A stretch of 64,000 nt of DNA, taken from IMG/VR virus record IMGVR_UViG_2718218131_000002. One strand, written 5' to 3'. A program made the translations under genes and the position numbers. The notes below the pieces were generated by a model, which ran no database searches, had not been told where the DNA came from, and was given only the letters and a program-made list of their open reading frames with translations. The DNA is from a virus. Lineage: Duplodnaviria > Heunggongvirae > Uroviricota > Caudoviricetes. Below are positions 2,070 to 7,698 of this stretch, one piece after another. Numbering within the stretch: the first letter of the stretch is position 1; each line of letters opens with the position of its first letter.

Positions 2070-2321
2070 TGAGATTAAAGTTTATTAGTTCAGATATTGA
2101 TTGGCTCTTTTGTGGAGTAGGGTAGAGTTAGTGTGTTTGTCTGCTTGGTGCCAGCAGCGGATATGTTTAACAACAGAAAGCATTCAGCATGGTTAGTGGA
2201 TTTGCAAAGTGGATTAGGATTTGAGAAACTTTGATGAAGTTGTAAAGCTTGTTTCTATAAAAATAGAAATTTAACTAATAGTTAAACACACCTCCAGCTT
2301 CATTGAAAAGGATTATTAGCT

Positions 2322-2609
2322 ATGATTGATCCACTTATTAGAAACTTACAGAGTGATATTGCACTACTCCAGCTTTATATCGCGCAACGCAAACAGGCAG
2401 GCTTTCATGACATGGAAAGAATAATTGAGTCATTGACCATCTTTATGTTTCGCGCGCTGAAAATGGGTGAACTGGTAAACATGAATCAGATTAAAGTTAA
2501 TTTTCCCGCCATTGATTTAGCTGATAATAAAAACATGATAGCAGTTCAAGTTACTACGAATGCAAGTCCAGCAAAAATTAAAAAACTATCGAATCTTTTG
2601 AGAAAATAA
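2322..2609 (+). CDS. SMEK-like N-terminal domain ORF, probable 5' part of a frameshifted gene
   Basis: AT-rich; motif NFPAIDLADNKNMIAVQVTTNASPAKIKK resembles SMEK-type N-terminal domains; the downstream ORF frame is open back into this one. Confidence 0.35.
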   Translation: MIDPLIRNLQSDIALLQLYIAQRKQAGFHDMERIIESLTIFMFRALKMGELVNMNQIKVNFPAIDLADNKNMIAVQVTTNASPAKIKKLSNLLRK

Positions 2610-2725
2610 ATGAAATAGGAGAGAGTCTGAAAGATAAATACTCTACTTTATATATTTTTGGTTTTTGTAAAGCCTCAAGATACCTAACTCCAAGTTATTG
2701 TAAAATAATCGACCCCAGCTATTTC

Positions 2726-3220
2726 GTGAATGAACTTTGCGATAAAGCAGATGAAGATATGGTCCAGGATATGATTGACGCCATTCGACGCCATCATGAT
2801 TATACATCATTACATCCATGGAGTGATAAAGATTCACTCGAAATTATACTCAATATTATTAATCGCAATGCAATAAAACATCGGATGAGTTGCGAAGGCA
2901 GTCTGTCTGATATGCTCACTGGTTTAAAAGAAATTAATGAAGTAATTACAAAAGGAACAATTCAACGTAAGCAACGTTCAAAATCGATATCTGACTTCAA
3001 AGATCAAAGCATGGTGAAATTTATGAGAGGTGTAATGGATGATTTGTCTGTTATTCAAGCCATAGTGAACAAATCTAAAGTTAACCAAGGTGATATGGTT
3101 TATATAAGCCATGAAGATATGATTAATATTGATAAATTAAAAGCTAAAATAGCAAGTGATTCATCAGAGATTGCAAGGCTAAATAATATTGATATAACAC
3201 TAAATGTTGTTGATTTATAA
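2726..3220 (+). CDS. hypothetical protein, probable 3' part of the same SMEK-like gene
   Basis: Frame has no stop back to at least 2582, overlapping the end of the previous ORF; listed start is GTG. Confidence 0.35.
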   Translation: MNELCDKADEDMVQDMIDAIRRHHDYTSLHPWSDKDSLEIILNIINRNAIKHRMSCEGSLSDMLTGLKEINEVITKGTIQRKQRSKSISDFKDQSMVKFMRGVMDDLSVIQAIVNKSKVNQGDMVYISHEDMINIDKLKAKIASDSSEIARLNNIDITLNVVDL

Positions 3221-3534
3221 TTGTCGATTTAGCAAAACAGAGAATGCTTTGAAAGTTTCACCGAGAAATATTTATTGTGAACCTCCTTATTGTTTATCGA
3301 CTTTTACTCTCCGCTCATTGCAGTACTGTCGGAGAAGGCTACTATGTACAAGAAGCAGCTAACATAAGCGAGCATCACTATTGATATTAGGAAGAGTATA
3401 TAAAAACTTCATGCTGAACCTTACAAAAGTAGGTAAACCGGCAATGGCCTAAGTGGCAGGGTCATGTTGATCCGGCACTGCCGAGCTAATAATTAACAAG
3501 CAAATCACTCTTTCTAATAATTTGTTGAAATAAA

Positions 3535-4194
3535 CTAAATATGTATATGTTTACCAACAACCACATATGAACTACCTGCTTTGCTCCATGATTTTATTAT
3601 TTCTAAATTATTATCTGAGCATATTTTACTTACAGTATCCACATCTAATAAACCATAGTAGAAAGCATTGCGAGAGTTTTGGTATATATACCCATGCAAA
3701 TGTTTAATACCGCTCTCGTACCTCTTGAAATAAGAACTTTTGTATTGATTGACAATCAGTGCTTCACCATCACTCTTTAATAATTCTCTAATCGCACTGA
3801 GGACTTTGTGAATTGTGGATTCACATGGAATTGCGGAAAGCACGTTTGCGCAAAGTATGAAATCATAATGATTTGTTATTTTATCTATATTTTCATAAGA
3901 AACAATATTAGCATTCTTATAGTTATTTATCACGTAATCTGGAATCGTGGTTTGTACACCTCTGATAATTTGCACTCTTTCTAGTTGTCTTCTGGAATCT
4001 AAAAATGTCACAGTTTCAAATTTATTTACTAATTGTTCTGAATATCTAAGTTTTCCACATCCAAAATCAAGGGCATTGCCATTTTTATTAGTGCTTTCAA
4101 TCTGTTTACAGAGATAGTTAGATGGCATAGTGTGCGGTTTCGCTGCATTTTCTGAACGTATGTTTATTCCATTTATTTTGTAATTCAAAATCAA
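3535..4194 (-). CDS. class I SAM-dependent methyltransferase
   Basis: Motif I LDFGCGKLRY and Rossmann-like order; AT-rich codon usage. Confidence 0.6.
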   Translation of the reverse strand: MILNYKINGINIRSENAAKPHTMPSNYLCKQIESTNKNGNALDFGCGKLRYSEQLVNKFETVTFLDSRRQLERVQIIRGVQTTIPDYVINNYKNANIVSYENIDKITNHYDFILCANVLSAIPCESTIHKVLSAIRELLKSDGEALIVNQYKSSYFKRYESGIKHLHGYIYQNSRNAFYYGLLDVDTVSKICSDNNLEIIKSWSKAGSSYVVVGKHIHI

Positions 4195-4200
4195 CCTCGT

Positions 4201-4908
4201 TTAAAAAATATTGTTATTGTTAAAGAATTCTTTTATTTTGCTATCAGGTATTTGTCTTACTTGGCTTTCTGTTCTTGGTTTAACTGATGCTATGAAAATA
4301 AGGAAGTCAAATGCGACAAGAGAAATAATCCACAACCAAAGATTAATTAAAGAGCCAGTAACAGAGAATATATTTGTTAATTTGGCGATACTTATTATTA
4401 AAATAGTAACAAATGCGATTACTGTATGTTCAAAGAAAACCCAAAAGTAATAAACTTTGTTCCAGAAAAGTTCAACGTAATGTTTGTCTTTTAACTCTTT
4501 AACTTCTGGGTAATACAGTTTACTCATTACCTTGTGAGATTCATCAGTAGTTAATTTTCTCGTAACGCCTGCAATTTTTGCTAATGGTTTAATAATTAAA
4601 TGACTATCCCACATCTTCCTTATTCCAATAATTTTTGCTACATTATTATGTAGATCTAAAGCTCCACTAATTACTGACCAAAAAACTGAAGATGCAATTG
4701 GTAATATGCCAAAGGTTAATATCCATTTAATAAATTCCTCGTAGTCTTTAACGGGGGGGATATACTTGGCATTAATGCCAACCAATGGCATGTAGCCATA
4801 AATGACTAATGATAGGTAAAATATAAATGTAGTAATAAAAGTCGCCTTATGGAGCATAGGCAACATTTCATTATAACTCTTTGGTGGTTCTAACATTTTA
4901 CTCTCCAA
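4201..4908 (-). CDS. polytopic membrane protein of unknown function
   Basis: 235 aa with several long hydrophobic segments; 6-nt gap to the methyltransferase downstream on the same strand. Confidence 0.5.
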   Translation of the reverse strand: MESKMLEPPKSYNEMLPMLHKATFITTFIFYLSLVIYGYMPLVGINAKYIPPVKDYEEFIKWILTFGILPIASSVFWSVISGALDLHNNVAKIIGIRKMWDSHLIIKPLAKIAGVTRKLTTDESHKVMSKLYYPEVKELKDKHYVELFWNKVYYFWVFFEHTVIAFVTILIISIAKLTNIFSVTGSLINLWLWIISLVAFDFLIFIASVKPRTESQVRQIPDSKIKEFFNNNNIF

Positions 4909-5638
4909 ACACTCAAAAAAAAGCTAATCTTCTATAATAACGAAATTCAGCTGGCACAATTAAAGATTAATTGCCACCAATTTCTTGATTTTATAATTTT
5001 ATCTAAATGTTTTTGATTAATCTAGTCCTAAAAGAAACCTACTGCATAAATATTTATGCTGATGACCCACTCCCTGTTCGTTAACACATAGCAACGTTAG
5101 TAATGCATCCTAAGTGATCAATATTTTTGCTAGCTTCATCTGCTCGCTCAAAGGGAACTATAATGTTGGCTTGCGTGTGACTTGGCATGTTTAAAGAAGT
5201 GCTGGTGGTGACTGGTTGCTGTTTTCCATTTCCACAGAACAAAATCATAGAAACTATACCCAGTAGTTGTATTGAATCACTGACGAGACAGCCTCATATT
5301 TATCAGGACTGGTGTACGTCCAATACAGGAGGTTGTGGTGCTGGTTCTCAAATGTGCGCTGGCTATTGCTGCTGTAATGGCAATTTATTGTCTTGCTGTT
5401 GTTCTTATGGATCACCTTTCTGATTGATTTCATATTGGCGAGGTAACGGTAGTTAAGTAGAATTGCTGCGGGTGCTTGAGGCTATCTGCCTCGGGCATCA
5501 ACACCAAAGGCAGATAGAGAAAAGCCCCAGTTAACATTACGCGTCCGGCAAGACGCTTAACATTAATCTGAGGCCATATCTATGCTCTACACACGTAGGT
5601 TAGCCTCTTACGTGCCGAAAGGCAAGGAGAAGCAGGCT

Positions 5639-5794
5639 ATGAAGCAGCAAAAGGCGATGTTAATCGCCCTGATCGTCATCTGTTTAACCGTCATAGTGAC
5701 GGCACTGGTAACGAGGAAAGACCTCTGCGAGGTACGAATCCGAACCGGCCAGACGGAGGTCGCTGTCTTCACAGCTTACGAACCTGAGGAGTAA
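5639..5794 (+). CDS. hok: Hok/Gef family type I toxin (HokD/RelF-like)
   Basis: MKQQKAMLIALIVICLTVIVTALVTRKDLCEVRIRTGQTEVAVFTAYEPEE is a near-exact Hok family match from memory; in-frame upstream extension from 5582 looks like a mok-like leader. Confidence 0.85.
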   Translation: MKQQKAMLIALIVICLTVIVTALVTRKDLCEVRIRTGQTEVAVFTAYEPEE

Positions 5795-5863: not shown

Positions 5864-5886
5864 ACCCGCTTCGGCGGGTTTTTGCA
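5864..5886 (+). terminator. rho-independent terminator after hok
   Basis: CCCGCTTCGGCGGG hairpin followed by T-run. Confidence 0.55.
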
Positions 5887-5959
5887 TTAGTCTGGTTGAC
5901 AAAAATAGAAAAATGCGAAAATATGTGGTTTACGAATTCTAAAAAAAGCGAAACTTGAA

Positions 5960-6610
5960 ATGAATGAAAATCAGTTAGCTCCTTGTTGGGAATTTCAACC
6001 TTATCTTGCTGAAAACTATGTTCGCCACTTGTTGGCGGAGATCGCTAACGTACTTGAGCAGCTGTACTATCATAAGCACGCATTAGACAGCAACTGGTCT
6101 GAAGGTGTAAGGGCTTATGATTGGGTCAGAAATCATCTTATTCAAAATGAAGATGCAATTCCTGGCCTTGAGATGATTTCCAAGGGGTTGGACTATGTAG
6201 TTGCTTTAAATAAAGTTCCGCTACAATTTACCAAAGATTGCATTAATAACCCCAAAAAGAAACATCGTCTGCGTCGAAATAAAGTAGAGTATGAGCAACT
6301 CTCATTGTTTGGTGATGTTGAGGCTGAGCAAGATATTACATGGCGAGTCATAGCTGAGCCTTTTTTATCCGAAGAGGGCGATGGTGAATTAGAGTCCACA
6401 CTGCCTCGTTGGGAGGTAGCTCTTGTTGGATTTAATACTTATGGTGCTCAGATTAGTATAGTTTCTCATCAATCTACAGCATCGATGCCGCTTATGCCTC
6501 TTGATTATAACACACTCCCTGACGAAGCGGAGATTAATAAGGTGCCTCTTCGTCGGCGTACGAAGGATAAAGATTTGGATGTGAGCAGTGATGGAACATC
6601 AGGTGAATAA
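5960..6610 (+). CDS. hypothetical protein, candidate toxin/effector partner of the downstream XRE-peptidase
   Basis: 216 aa; 3' end overlaps the next gene by 23 nt; no motif recognised. Confidence 0.4.
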   Translation: MNENQLAPCWEFQPYLAENYVRHLLAEIANVLEQLYYHKHALDSNWSEGVRAYDWVRNHLIQNEDAIPGLEMISKGLDYVVALNKVPLQFTKDCINNPKKKHRLRRNKVEYEQLSLFGDVEAEQDITWRVIAEPFLSEEGDGELESTLPRWEVALVGFNTYGAQISIVSHQSTASMPLMPLDYNTLPDEAEINKVPLRRRTKDKDLDVSSDGTSGE

Positions 6611-7694
6611 CTTCACTGAGTATCGGGGTGATAAGCTCAAACTAGCGAGAATGGCTGTTGGGCTTTCTTGTGAAGAGTTAGCCGAAAAAATTGGCAAGAC
6701 AAAGCAATTCGTTAGCAAACTGGAGAAGGGGTGCAGGCCATCGGAGCAATGTCTTGAGTTAATATCTTCAGCGCTTATGATTAAGTCCAGTTTTCTTTTT
6801 ACTGAACGAAAATACGCTCTGGAAAGTGATGTCTGCCATTTTCGGAGTAAGAAGTCCAGGACTCAAACGCTGACTAATAGTGTATTGGCCAGGGCTGAGA
6901 TTCTTAATATTATAATTTCTGCTGTTGAAGGTGAAATCGAATTTCCTGACGTTAACATACCGGAGCACCCAGGGGCTGAATTACTTACTCCGAATGATAT
7001 TGAGCGAGTGGCAGAAGATTGTCGCCGTGCCTGGAATTTAGGTCTTGGCCCTATATCATCAATGGTTAAATTGGCGGAGAGTTTAGGGGTAATCGTTGCG
7101 CATGTTACGGGAGTCGATGATCGTGTTGATGCTTTTACTGTTCACAATAACAGGCCTGTTATCATCAGGAACAATGTTAAAAAAAGCATATGTAGATTTC
7201 GCTCTGATTTAGGTCATGAATTAGGGCATTTAGTAATGCATGAGGGCATAACGACAGGTGATAAACTTACGGAATCACAAGCCGATCACTTTTCGAGCGC
7301 CTTATTAGTTCCCAGGTTATCTTTCATTAAAGAATTTCCACGAATACGAGGTAAGCAATTCGACTGGAATGCTCTGGTTGAATTTAAACTTAGATGGAAA
7401 ATCAGCCTTAAAATGTGTATTTATCGAGCCAGCGCATTAGGCTTATTGACCCAGGAACAGGCAAGAACTGGCTATATGCATCTTAATTCCAGAGGGTATA
7501 CGAGAGTTGAACCTGGTGATGAACTTTTGCGCCCTGAAGAACCCGGTATGCTGGCCGAGGCGATTGAAATGCTGGATGATGCAACCTGGCTAAGAATTCT
7601 TATGAAAACTGGCTTGAGCCAAGATTTAATTCGTGAGTTGTTCTCCATCAACAGACCTATTACAAATCCAAGAAATATTTTCCAGATTGTTTGA
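6588..7694 (+). CDS. XRE-family HTH fused to ImmA/IrrE-type Zn metallopeptidase (COG2856-like)
   Basis: N-terminal HTH (LARMAVGLSCEELAEKIGKTKQFVSKLEKG) and HEXXH motif (HELGHLVMHE). Confidence 0.7.
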   Translation: MMEHQVNNFTEYRGDKLKLARMAVGLSCEELAEKIGKTKQFVSKLEKGCRPSEQCLELISSALMIKSSFLFTERKYALESDVCHFRSKKSRTQTLTNSVLARAEILNIIISAVEGEIEFPDVNIPEHPGAELLTPNDIERVAEDCRRAWNLGLGPISSMVKLAESLGVIVAHVTGVDDRVDAFTVHNNRPVIIRNNVKKSICRFRSDLGHELGHLVMHEGITTGDKLTESQADHFSSALLVPRLSFIKEFPRIRGKQFDWNALVEFKLRWKISLKMCIYRASALGLLTQEQARTGYMHLNSRGYTRVEPGDELLRPEEPGMLAEAIEMLDDATWLRILMKTGLSQDLIRELFSINRPITNPRNIFQIV

Positions 7695-7698
7695 GTAT

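Follow-up and report, generated by a model that had tools for sequence, protein, structure and literature searches.

An AT-rich prophage cassette carrying a paralogue of the e14 ymfE–ymfD pair and a frameshifted SMEK gene

Introduction

What do the genes of an AT-rich block in the early region of a lambdoid prophage do, and do they act together? The block lies in a dicA/dicB (Qin-type) prophage of E. coli, within a virus record of 64,000 nucleotides (IMGVR_UViG_2718218131_000002; the whole stretch is referred to as the window). It holds a SMEK-like gene on the + strand and, convergent to it, a - strand operon of a polytopic membrane protein followed by a SAM-dependent methyltransferase, an arrangement that an earlier note had read from the sequence and that the ORF map and Pfam bear out (Table 1). 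On balance, we regard the block as a mobile cassette composed of two independent defence-type modules, a paralogue of the ymfE–ymfD pair of e14 and a broken SMEK gene.

The e14 protein YmfE was named 'Kunado' in a preprint of September 2026 (bioRxiv 10.64898/2026.09.05.749240), and this single report, which is not peer-reviewed, provides the evidence for Kunado. According to the preprint, deletion of ymfE in a delta-hns strain brings back the infectivity of T5-like phages, and ymfE by itself on a pBR322-type plasmid, without ymfD, is tolerated and protective. Adsorption is not blocked and phages with different receptors are affected; the authors propose superinfection exclusion, with a block of DNA entry proposed at most and abortive infection a possible alternative. 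The locus is bound, compacted and silenced by H-NS, and lit and ymfE are the sole hits reported from an e14 Keio screen. YmfE is treated there as a single-gene system, and YmfD is not mentioned (10.64898/2026.09.05.749240).

A mobile AT-rich cassette in a variable prophage slot

The GC content falls from 0.46–0.54 outside to 0.29–0.35 inside positions ~2100–5200, and the block proper (2150–5062) has a GC content of 0.323 (median of the window, 0.505), which makes it the minimum among all 2.9 kb stretches of the 64 kb window; the AT-rich block of ~3 kb described in the earlier note is thus real. In alignments to related prophages, homology stops at ~2164 and restarts at ~5128. The block occupies the slot between a DUF977 gene and hokD, which is filled by different genes in other strains, in keeping with the earlier view of accessory genes at a variable site in the early/nin region of the prophage. 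E. coli A42 has the same cassette in another lambdoid prophage, and an ICE-like island of Klebsiella has it at 83–84% nucleotide identity; its ends are identical (2149/2150 to 5060/5062) in two unrelated contexts, and among 5426 complete E. coli genomes, 153 carry it. The 2.9 kb block is a horizontally mobile cargo cassette, and DUF977–hokD becomes a named variable slot, in very common E. coli prophages, where defence and toxin–antitoxin (TA) modules are swapped.

Table 1. Features of the cassette, with positions in the window
Feature	Position	Strand	Basis or remark
AT-rich cargo cassette (SMEK gene and ymfE/ymfD-like operon)	2150..5062	.	GC content, homology breaks, recurrence
SMEK gene, 5' part, N-terminal Mrr-like PD-(D/E)xK nuclease domain	2322..2609	+	95-aa ORF, truncated at codon 89 by frameshift
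A6 homopolymer, site of 1-bp deletion	2580..2585	+	A7 in intact alleles
SMEK gene, 3' part, remainder of nuclease domain and conserved C-terminal domain	2587..3220	+	Out of frame with 5' part
Convergent intergenic spacer between SMEK and methyltransferase genes	3221..3534	.	ORF map; GC 0.376
YmfD-like class I SAM-dependent methyltransferase, 217 aa	3535..4188	-	67.3% identity to e14 YmfD
YmfE-like ('Kunado'-family) inner-membrane protein, 231 aa	4201..4896	-	60.2% identity to K-12 YmfE
AT-rich region upstream of operon	4897..5127	-	GC 0.30; presumed promoter and presumed H-NS target

The region upstream of the operon (4897..5127) would correspond, by analogy, to the stretch between lit and ymfE in e14, which H-NS silences. 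With a GC content of 0.30–0.33, compared with 0.328 for e14 ymfED, the cassette has a composition permissive for H-NS, and its AT content suggests that H-NS may bind here, so that the cassette, like e14 ymfE, would probably be kept largely silent. A simple scan of the region did not find a strong sigma-70 consensus on the - strand.

A frameshifted gene for an Mrr-like nuclease

The SMEK signature noticed earlier stands, and the integrity of the gene in the window does not. Even the truncated ORF matches Pfam SMEK_N (PF21941; E=1.1e-18, 67.9 bits, cutoff 27), and a 1-bp deletion in the A run at 2580–2585 (A7 to A6) ends the reading frame at codon 95, compared with 299 aa for the intact allele. 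This base is the sole difference between positions 2100–5200 of the window and an intact locus (L001); translation of the out-of-frame 3' part gives residues 90–299 of the intact protein WP_000566848.1, and the frameshifted allele is found in ~11 complete genomes from several projects. The SMEK gene of the window is a frameshifted pseudogene. A simple scan of the spacer that separates it from the methyltransferase gene did not find a consensus terminator.

The intact allele scores 79.9 bits with PF21941 (cutoff 27) and 105 bits with the NCBIfam SMEK_N model NF033859 (cutoff 30, E=1.3e-30), and it matches the PADLOC model Aga_REase-PNTD (E=1.4e-20), which covers residues 8–146 only, the C-terminal part matching no family. 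A search of the PDB with the family profile recovers 26bh_D ('Mrr domain of Kordia jejudonensis Mrr-APAZ pAgo') at E=3e-12, and the NFPAIDLAD...QVT(S/T) motifs of the two line up. Residues E36, D65, D68, Q76 and T78 show no or almost no variation. The literature places SMEK among the Mrr-like nucleases that serve short pAgos as effectors. The protein shares with the SMEK/Mrr-APAZ effectors of short pAgos (SPARDA-type; the KjAgo partner, PDB 26bh) the N-terminal Mrr-like PD-(D/E)xK domain and the motifs E...NFPAIDxxD...QVT(S/T). It differs from them in having a C-terminal domain of ~160 aa in place of APAZ, in being solitary, and in being frameshifted here; neither an APAZ fusion nor an adjacent MID-PIWI pAgo was found, and no pAgo gene is annotated within the 19 kb neighbourhood. 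The C-terminal domain is conserved across Proteobacteria, with HP..D, RNA..H, EG, DM and GL.E motifs, and a Pfam search found no family match for it.

In Pseudomonas, Vibrio and Enterobacter, SMEK genes are solitary, with varying neighbours. The intact gene is best described as a candidate single-gene defence, in which a stand-alone Mrr-like nuclease effector would be fused to a C-terminal domain that presumably acts as a sensor. The SMEK/Mrr-like nuclease family is widespread in stand-alone form, its effector domain being common to short-Argonaute systems.

A paralogue of the e14 ymfE–ymfD pair

The membrane protein aligns over its full length with K-12 YmfE, which is found by the family profile at E=3.5e-120; scans of Pfam, NCBIfam, PHROG and PADLOC return no family match. 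The full-length homology between the e14 pair and the cassette pair extends to both proteins (60% for the membrane protein, 67% for the methyltransferase). Common to the two pairs are the gene order, the tight coupling of abutting genes (in the cassette a gap of 12 nt with a GAGG Shine-Dalgarno), a GC content of ~32–33% and the four-TM architecture, and both are prophage cargo beside other defence or TA genes. They differ in their slots (DUF977–hokD of the Qin-type prophage for the cassette, the icd-proximal end of e14, beside lit, for ymfE–ymfD), and the cassette pair is joined to the SMEK gene in the 2.9 kb block, whereas the e14 pair is without SMEK. The earlier note could match none of the three genes to a system it could name; the operon is recognizable as a paralogue of e14 ymfE–ymfD, and the SMEK gene by the Mrr-like domain of short-pAgo effectors. 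Its suspicion of cargo of the defence or superinfection-exclusion type gains support from a membrane protein 60% identical to e14 YmfE, which acts against T5-like phages by experiment, according to the preprint.

Assignment to the YmfE family follows from full-length homology, polytopic architecture and the adjacent YmfD-type methyltransferase; the last is a criterion added in this analysis and absent from the preprint. By sequence, the operon is an added member of the just-described defence family, with a conserved enzymatic partner. Being a diverged paralogue of a newly described defence gene, the locus adds a member and not a kind. Protection against T5-like phages without a block of adsorption is known for e14 YmfE only and is most likely, by homology, for the cassette paralogue, with 60% identity being no guarantee of the same phage range, or even of the same activity.

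In an AF2 model of the membrane protein (pLDDT 84.6, pTM 0.79), four long hydrophobic helices are seen, and hydropathy, the positive-inside rule and the model together indicate four TM helices with a conserved cytoplasmic helical insert. The K/R-rich central insert (85–150) and the C-terminus are predicted to be cytoplasmic. Among 96 distinct family members, H87, R97, D101, Y133, W156 and E160 are kept in at least 94%, and these conserved polar residues map to the cytoplasmic insert or to TM3 where it meets the cytoplasm. A fold search gave generic helical matches only, so the structure backs no mechanism. The family is absent from the 50,697 sequenced phage genomes searched, so that prophages, cryptic prophages and islands are the only places where it is seen.

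The methyltransferase and its probable class of substrate

The methyltransferase scores over the gathering thresholds of Pfam Methyltransf_12/23. Motif I (DFGCGKLRY), an acidic residue (D64) and the stretches ENAAKP, NVLSAIPC and VNQ.(R/K)SSYFK are invariant in its family, and with its SAM-binding motifs invariant the enzyme is predicted to be catalytically intact. In Foldseek searches with its AF2 model (pLDDT 90.2), the best PDB matches are Trm9, NNMT, DnrK, MfnG, PhzM and NodS, i.e., its neighbours in fold are enzymes that methylate tRNA or small molecules.

Could it modify DNA, as an orphan enzyme, a component of an R-M/BREX-like system, or a source of anti-restriction marks on prophage or host DNA? 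DNA methyltransferases are frequent in prophage early regions, and PADLOC gives mad2 as a weak match (E=9.7e-5) along the generic SAM-binding core. The earlier note had suggested looking for DNA-methyltransferase motifs, and none was found: in the family alignment C.NVLSAIPC follows beta-4 in place of the (D/N/S)PP(Y/F/W) motif IV, the C5 motif set (PC...ENV) is not found in the 217 aa, and neither is a target-recognition domain, for which a single Rossmann domain of this length leaves no room. Neither the 50 listed Foldseek matches nor the PDB profile hits include a DNA methyltransferase, and we know of no additional methylation motif ascribed to e14 in K-12 methylomes. The enzyme has a defence context in common with the methyltransferases of R-M, BREX (PglX) and MADS (mad2); unlike them, it has neither their motifs and target-recognition domain nor their nuclease, ATPase or other partners. 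A role in DNA modification is extremely improbable, and sequence and model together indicate that the protein is not a DNA methyltransferase.

Near-universal linkage of the pair

With the methyltransferase alone as query, 80 metagenomic loci were retrieved, and a YmfE-family neighbour is present beside the methyltransferase in 73 of the 74 that could be evaluated. The membrane gene directly precedes the methyltransferase gene in 45, the two are adjacent in reversed order in 16, and one conserved gene is inserted in 12; the sole fully evaluable locus without the partner resembles an assembly chimera. The linkage held in all nine hand-checked loci (9/9), down to an identity of 22% for the membrane protein and 40% for the methyltransferase. 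The identities of the two proteins co-vary, with a Spearman coefficient of 0.95 against the window sequences and 0.76 all against all.

Gene-order-permuted and three-gene variants of the pair are found in soil and marine bacteria. In Enterobacter and Providencia, the pair lies directly 3' of ogr in P2-like prophages; elsewhere it is found in a P4-cII/retron-type island, beside lit in e14, and beside hok/sok and Rosmer RmrTA here. The methyltransferase is a near-obligate partner of the membrane protein, and a linkage that outlasts both reordering of the two genes and insertion of a third one is a classical signature of functional coupling. In the preprint, ymfE is sufficient and the screen hits are only lit and ymfE. 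For the one known phenotype the methyltransferase therefore seems not to be needed, which fits uneasily with its strict conservation. This comparative result weighs more than the added member: an enzyme overlooked in the first description of Kunado is linked to it in essentially every lineage examined.

Discussion

In the explanation we favour, the membrane protein most likely, by homology, protects the lysogen after adsorption against incoming phages (T5-like for YmfE), the blocked step probably being genome entry across the inner membrane. The methyltransferase, as a translationally coupled partner, would act with it on the cytoplasmic side of the membrane. Its substrate would be a protein, a lipid or a small molecule rather than DNA, the membrane protein itself being one candidate, and the enzyme may adjust exclusion, extend it or make it less toxic. 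HK97 gp15, P22 SieA, T4 Imm and Rac/lambda SieB are small inner-membrane superinfection-exclusion proteins that act after adsorption, which is the mode proposed for YmfE. Pfam, PHROG and fold searches detected no sequence or fold similarity of the membrane protein to these classical proteins, none of which, to our knowledge, has an obligate enzymatic partner. A tentative extension, possible and well short of probable, is that YmfE/Kunado is one half of an ancient and widespread two-component system with a dedicated methyltransferase acting on a non-DNA target, which may be the membrane protein, a phage ejection or entry protein, a lipid, or a metabolite. If this is true, methylation of something other than nucleic acid at the inner membrane would be a previously unrecognised principle in anti-phage immunity. 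The question of YmfD is now concrete and testable, in that it concerns a defence that may methylate something other than DNA.

Several other explanations have to be weighed. The pair might be an abortive-infection or TA-like module, with a membrane-damaging effector and the methyltransferase as its regulator, antidote or sensor, leading to death or dormancy and not to exclusion. Abortive-infection systems often employ small multi-TM effectors; a fast-evolving membrane protein tightly coupled to a more conserved enzyme recalls effector–regulator pairs; the family-wide conserved glutamate in TM3, near the inner leaflet, would suit a channel or pore; silencing by H-NS, reported in the preprint for e14, suggests a cost of expression; and TA or abortive-infection modules lie nearby (hok/sok and RmrTA here, lit in e14). 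Against these points, plasmid-borne ymfE alone is reported to be tolerated and protective without ymfD, and the preprint authors favour exclusion, which leaves abortive infection rather unlikely. A lysogenic-conversion or metabolic module, for small-molecule or oxyanion methylation and detoxification in the manner of TehA/TehB, or for methylation of envelope lipids, is very unlikely. The operon layout resembles tehAB, the Rossmann-fold SAM core is common to TehB, UbiG, NodS, NNMT and Trm9 with weak family or fold matches (among them PDB hits to UbiG and TehB), the fold neighbours include small-molecule enzymes, and Pfam TehB scores 24.4 bits, marginally over its cutoff of 20.4. However, the NCBIfam TehB equivalogs score 28–29 bits against cutoffs of 218–303, the family has invariant motifs of its own, and the membrane partner matches no family in the four collections scanned, hence no TehA-like transporter or channel family is detected. 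In addition, the homologue YmfE has a phage phenotype, by the preprint, and the pair is found consistently in mobile or defence contexts.

The earlier note described the three genes as one accessory cassette, and a single three-component system, with SMEK as nuclease effector, the membrane protein as sensor or anchor, and the methyltransferase, would make the cassette one functional whole. The trio does move as a block with identical ends in three contexts (the Qin-type prophage, the A42 lambdoid prophage and the Klebsiella ICE-like island), and it is found again in ~30 viral and metagenomic loci whose methyltransferases share 80% identity or more with it here. However, SMEK homologues of at most 77% identity are solitary with varying neighbours, and the pair is found without SMEK in e14, P2-like prophages, a P4-like island, marine gammaproteobacteria and soil metagenomes; SMEK is transcribed convergently to the pair, and it is frameshifted while the pair is intact in the window and ~10 other genomes. 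The e14 ymfE gene is also active without any SMEK gene, according to the preprint. A single system is distinctly unlikely, and the cassette resolves into two separable modules, each present without the other in most lineages.

A second cargo slot lies just downstream of the cassette and holds a neighbouring module, Rosmer RmrT/RmrA. Both members of the pair are found by PADLOC (RmrT at 5960–6610, E=4.6e-25; RmrA at 6588–7694, E=6.2e-105), and the Pfam domains HTH_3 and Peptidase_M78 support an HTH-M78 peptidase of the RmrA type.

A low-GC cassette in a variable prophage slot

The composition profile of the window drops from a GC content of 0.46–0.54 to 0.29–0.35 between ~2100 and ~5200, and the cassette itself, at 0.323, is the minimum of all 2.9 kb stretches in the 64 kb, for which the median is 0.505. 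The ORF map and Pfam bear out the gene content that the earlier note had read from the sequence, namely a plus-strand ORF with a SMEK_N signature and, convergent to it, a minus-strand operon of a membrane protein and a SAM methyltransferase. The window represents a dicA/dicB (Qin-type) lambdoid prophage of E. coli, in which the gene order is dicA, dicC, a YdaT-family gene, a replication-organiser-like gene, DUF977, the cassette, sok/hokD, DUF968, RusA and Q. The cassette is present in 153 of 5426 complete E. coli genomes, always on the chromosome, and 146 of the 153 carry it at 99% identity or higher.

In related prophages, homology to the window ends at ~2164 and restarts at ~5128. The DUF977–hokD interval is filled by two unrelated hypothetical genes in AF26, by small ORFs in EcPF5, and by a truncated methyltransferase gene together with a gene for epoxyqueuosine reductase QueH in E. 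coli B. Another variable slot lies immediately 3' of hokD; in the window it carries RmrT/RmrA, a Rosmer toxin–antitoxin defence pair, and in E. coli C7 (locus L001) it is empty. Because the homology breaks, the cargo differs from strain to strain and a second variable slot follows hokD, the earlier proposal of accessory cargo at a hotspot holds. On its right-hand side the cargo slot is anchored by the hok/sok locus.

Coordinates of features in the window and in the comparison loci (L-numbers)
Feature	Sequence	Position	Strand	Evidence or remark
AT-rich cassette	window	2150-5062		SMEK gene and membrane protein–methyltransferase operon
SMEK gene, 95-aa fragment	window	2322-2609	+	
SMEK gene, out-of-frame rest	window	2587-3220	+	
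1-bp deletion	window	2580-2585		A7 to A6
Class I SAM methyltransferase, 217 aa	window	3535-4188	-	ORF map, Pfam
Membrane protein, 231 aa, hydrophobic	window	4201-4896	-	ORF map
sok RNA (hok/sok locus)	window	5470-5644		Rfam RF01794, 114 bits
hokD	window	5639-5794		part of a complete type I hok/sok toxin-antitoxin locus
Second variable slot	window	5885-7698		
RmrT (Rosmer toxin)	window	5960-6610	+	PADLOC, E=4.6e-25
RmrA (Rosmer)	window	6588-7694	+	PADLOC, E=6.2e-105; HTH_3 + Peptidase_M78
Block copy	L040	5969-8914		E. coli A42, different lambdoid prophage
Block copy	L041	5137-8049		Klebsiella pneumoniae ICE-like island, beside HipA-type, ScoMcrA_N-HNH and TraI_2 genes
DUF977–hokD slot cargo	L039	5007-5959		E. 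coli B
Methyltransferase locus lacking the partner	L045	1-4000		
300-aa ORF	L003	11058-11960	-	Enterobacter asburiae P2-like prophage
Solitary SMEK neighbourhood	L012	6958-9736		Pseudomonas

The 2.9 kb block of SMEK and the membrane protein–methyltransferase pair recurs with the same ends elsewhere in the Enterobacteriaceae, in E. coli A42 and Klebsiella, at 83–84% nucleotide identity, and is also seen in ~30 viral and metagenomic loci. The cassette ends were searched for terminal inverted or direct repeats and for target duplications, without a convincing result; recombination, not transposition, is therefore the probable means by which the cassette is exchanged. Promoter and terminator scans of the cassette were uninformative, with no more matches than expected from shuffled sequence.

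A paralogue of the e14 ymfE–ymfD operon

The membrane gene is separated from the downstream methyltransferase gene by 12 nt that include a GAGG Shine–Dalgarno sequence. The membrane protein has no family in Pfam, NCBIfam, PHROG or PADLOC, and a word-indexed search with it returned only 38 clusters, Enterobacterales throughout. An exhaustive profile search gave a family of 214 representatives at E<=1e-3, mostly of 220–250 aa and matching no Pfam family; a scan of genome contigs, which yielded only five loci, mostly on tiny contaminant-like contigs, was the route to the e14 copy. This E. coli K-12 copy, at 60% identity, is ymfE, and it is followed by ymfD ("class I SAM-dependent methyltransferase"), the two genes lying at the icd end of the cryptic prophage e14, divergent from lit. 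With identities of 60.2% to YmfE and 67.3% to YmfD, the operon is, as judged by sequence comparison, almost certainly a paralogue of ymfE–ymfD and its proteins are identified accordingly. The YmfE/Kunado family is matched in every feature that could be tested, and the locus is a further member of this just-described kind.

According to the available text of a preprint of 11 September 2026 (bioRxiv 10.64898/2026.09.05.749240), e14 in delta-hns K-12 confers resistance to T4-like phages via lit and to T5-like phages via ymfE, these two genes being the only reported hits in an e14 Keio screen. Cloned with its native promoter, ymfE protects alone; it acts on phages of differing receptors and leaves adsorption unblocked, and the authors propose that YmfE, which they named Kunado, excludes superinfecting phages by blocking DNA injection. 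The lit/ymfE locus is described there as compacted and H-NS-bound, and the available text makes no mention of ymfD or of any methyltransferase (bioRxiv 10.64898/2026.09.05.749240). A literature search with the RefSeq protein accessions gave no match.

The YmfE/Kunado family is found in none of 50,697 sequenced phage genomes and is nearly absent from plasmids, and has so far been seen solely as prophage and island cargo. Two E. coli "plasmids" of ~15.2 kb in PLSDB, OR902851.1 and OR902858.1, carry YmfE homologues at 63% and 37% identity; since both records match e14 in size, they may be excised e14-like circles.

The methyltransferase accompanies the membrane protein

The main result beyond the literature is the near-obligate partnership of the methyltransferase with the membrane protein. 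The pair is kept in all hand-checked loci, where the upstream partners all match the YmfE profile (E=1e-15 to 1e-129). These settings include P2-like prophages of Enterobacter and Providencia, with the pair directly 3' of ogr, a P4-cII/retron-type island, and islands of Marinobacter, Microbulbifer and Colwellia, with the pair beside transposases, recombinases and TA genes; two distant metagenomic relatives also keep it, one with a frameshifted methyltransferase. The identities of the two proteins co-vary (Spearman 0.95 against the window and 0.76 all against all), the membrane protein being the faster-evolving, at 22–25% identity where the methyltransferase still has 40–44%.

Eighty metagenomic loci, partly non-independent and including some duplicates, were fetched by the methyltransferase alone (29–100% identity) and then scanned for YmfE-family ORFs. 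The membrane gene directly precedes the methyltransferase gene in 45 of the 80, and the adjacent pair is in swapped order in 16 (L065, L068, L072, L073, L075, L076, L082, L087, L088 and L099-L105), so adjacency is kept independently of order. Twelve further loci (L078-L081, L084-L086, L089, L091, L092, L094 and L098) place one conserved gene between the two, coding for a ~170-aa Cys-rich protein with the motifs VTGF.HLWA.YVRGFN, HCQ..LRG, YICGV, NNLHLPL and RC.NFRF and with no Pfam family. Flanks were too short for evaluation on one or both sides in six loci, and a single fully evaluable locus, L045, lacks the partner. Its homology to the window begins exactly at the methyltransferase start codon, its neighbours are unrelated phosphoesterase and F5/8-type-C genes, and its contig is labelled cov-2.18, all of which makes an assembly chimera the most likely reading. 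Because adjacency survives both the gene-order swap and the inserted third gene, this context evidence argues strongly for functional coupling of the methyltransferase and the membrane protein. What the comparison adds is that the Kunado kind is a two-gene, sometimes three-gene, and broadly distributed one.

The methyltransferase lacks DNA-methyltransferase features

The AF2 model of the methyltransferase has a pLDDT of 90.2. Within the family, the SAM-binding DFGCGKLRY and D64 are invariant, as are the family-specific motifs ENAAKP (near the N-terminus), C.NVLSAIPC and VNQ.(R/K)SSYFK, and for this reason the protein looks like an active enzyme. The earlier note had raised the question of DNA-methyltransferase motifs; none was found, (D/N/S)PP(Y/F), the C5 motif set and a target-recognition domain all being absent. 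Foldseek neighbours among the matches listed are Trm9, NNMT, DnrK, MfnG, PhzM and NodS, at TM ~0.6 and ~15% identity, and profile matches in the PDB are marginal and generic (Rickettsia protein-lysine methyltransferase 2, TehB and UbiG). On motifs and fold neighbours a DNA methyltransferase is therefore rejected, with no feature tested in support; a TehB equivalog is rejected as well, at 28–29 bits against cutoffs of 218–303. The cassette proteins fall into none of the DNA-methyltransferase, TehB and SPARDA families.

Membrane protein architecture and a possible mechanism

The AF2 model of the membrane protein is confident (pLDDT 84.6, pTM 0.79) and shows a helical insert (residues 85–150) in addition to four long hydrophobic helices. 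Lys and Arg residues number 13 in the insert and five in the C-terminal tail, with almost none in the two short loops, and these charges predict that the insert and both termini are cytoplasmic. The conserved polar or aromatic residues, His87, Arg97, Asp101, Tyr133, Trp156 and Glu160 in the numbering of the 235-aa ORF, are shared by 94–100% of 96 distinct family members. All six map to the insert or to the cytoplasmic end of TM3 and are thus potentially accessible to a cytoplasmic enzyme.

Beyond the homologies, linkage and genomic context, which are shown, we infer a model in which the membrane protein would act after adsorption to protect the lysogen, with genome entry across the inner membrane as the most likely step, in line with the proposal for YmfE. 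In this model the methyltransferase would be recruited to the conserved cytoplasmic face of the membrane protein and would methylate a non-DNA substrate, whether a lipid or metabolite, an entry protein of the phage or its own membrane partner, thereby modulating range, activity or cost; the AT-rich cassette would be silenced by H-NS. An anti-phage role for the window's YmfE paralogue is reasonably probable. An entry block in preference to abortive infection is a tentative choice that we hold to be rather doubtful, and confidence in any specific substrate is low. The apparent sufficiency of ymfE, as given in the available preprint text, is real evidence against an essential role of the methyltransferase in the one known phenotype.

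A broken SMEK gene and a separate module

The SMEK_N signature (Pfam PF21941, E=1.1e-18) reported in the earlier note is confirmed, with one correction: the gene is not intact. Over 2100–5200, the sole difference between the window and the intact C7 locus is a 1-bp deletion in an A-run, which breaks up the 299-aa SMEK gene, leaving a 95-aa fragment and, out of frame with it, the rest. The shorter run could be a homopolymer miscall, or it could be a lineage mutation or slippage-prone variation. Most genomes have A7, and since the A6 allele is common to ~11 complete genomes from several projects, the frameshift probably reflects a true mutation and not a sequencing error.

In the literature, SMEK is an Mrr-like nuclease effector domain fused to APAZ in short-pAgo systems. 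The profile of the 300-aa SMEK family matches 26bh_D, the solved "Mrr domain of Kordia jejudonensis Mrr-APAZ pAgo", at E=3e-12, with the NFPAIDLAD...QVT(S/T) motifs aligned; the C-terminal ~160 residues are conserved, yet matched no family. Full-length members form 108 clusters across the Proteobacteria (31–99% identity), and SMEK there is solitary with varying neighbours: Abi_alpha in Vibrio, SLATT_5 in Pseudomonas, and integrases or SymE and TacA/T in Enterobacter. Unlike a SPARDA-type system, SMEK occurs here with neither pAgo nor APAZ, and is therefore not a system of that type; it represents a candidate stand-alone SMEK nuclease family. We read SMEK and the pair as two co-mobilised modules and not as one system, because each usually occurs alone, the two are convergently transcribed, SMEK is broken in the window while the pair is intact, and e14 ymfE works without SMEK.

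Neighbouring genes in Enterobacter and Pseudomonas were considered as relatives of the cassette genes. The 300-aa gene adjoining the pair in Enterobacter is not a SMEK. In the E. asburiae P2-like prophage, a 300-aa ORF located by the CI repressor and integrase remnants has a sole, weak match, which is nucleoside 2-deoxyribosyltransferase-like (E=0.005), and it is maybe another cargo or defence gene. Beside the Pseudomonas SMEK, the 219-aa and SLATT_5 genes are not homologues of YmfD and YmfE. The 219-aa protein, encoded 3' of the solitary SMEK, has a weak HEPN RiboL-PSP match, and together with the SLATT_5 2TM effector and a 309-aa unknown protein it forms an arrangement that resembles a defence island.
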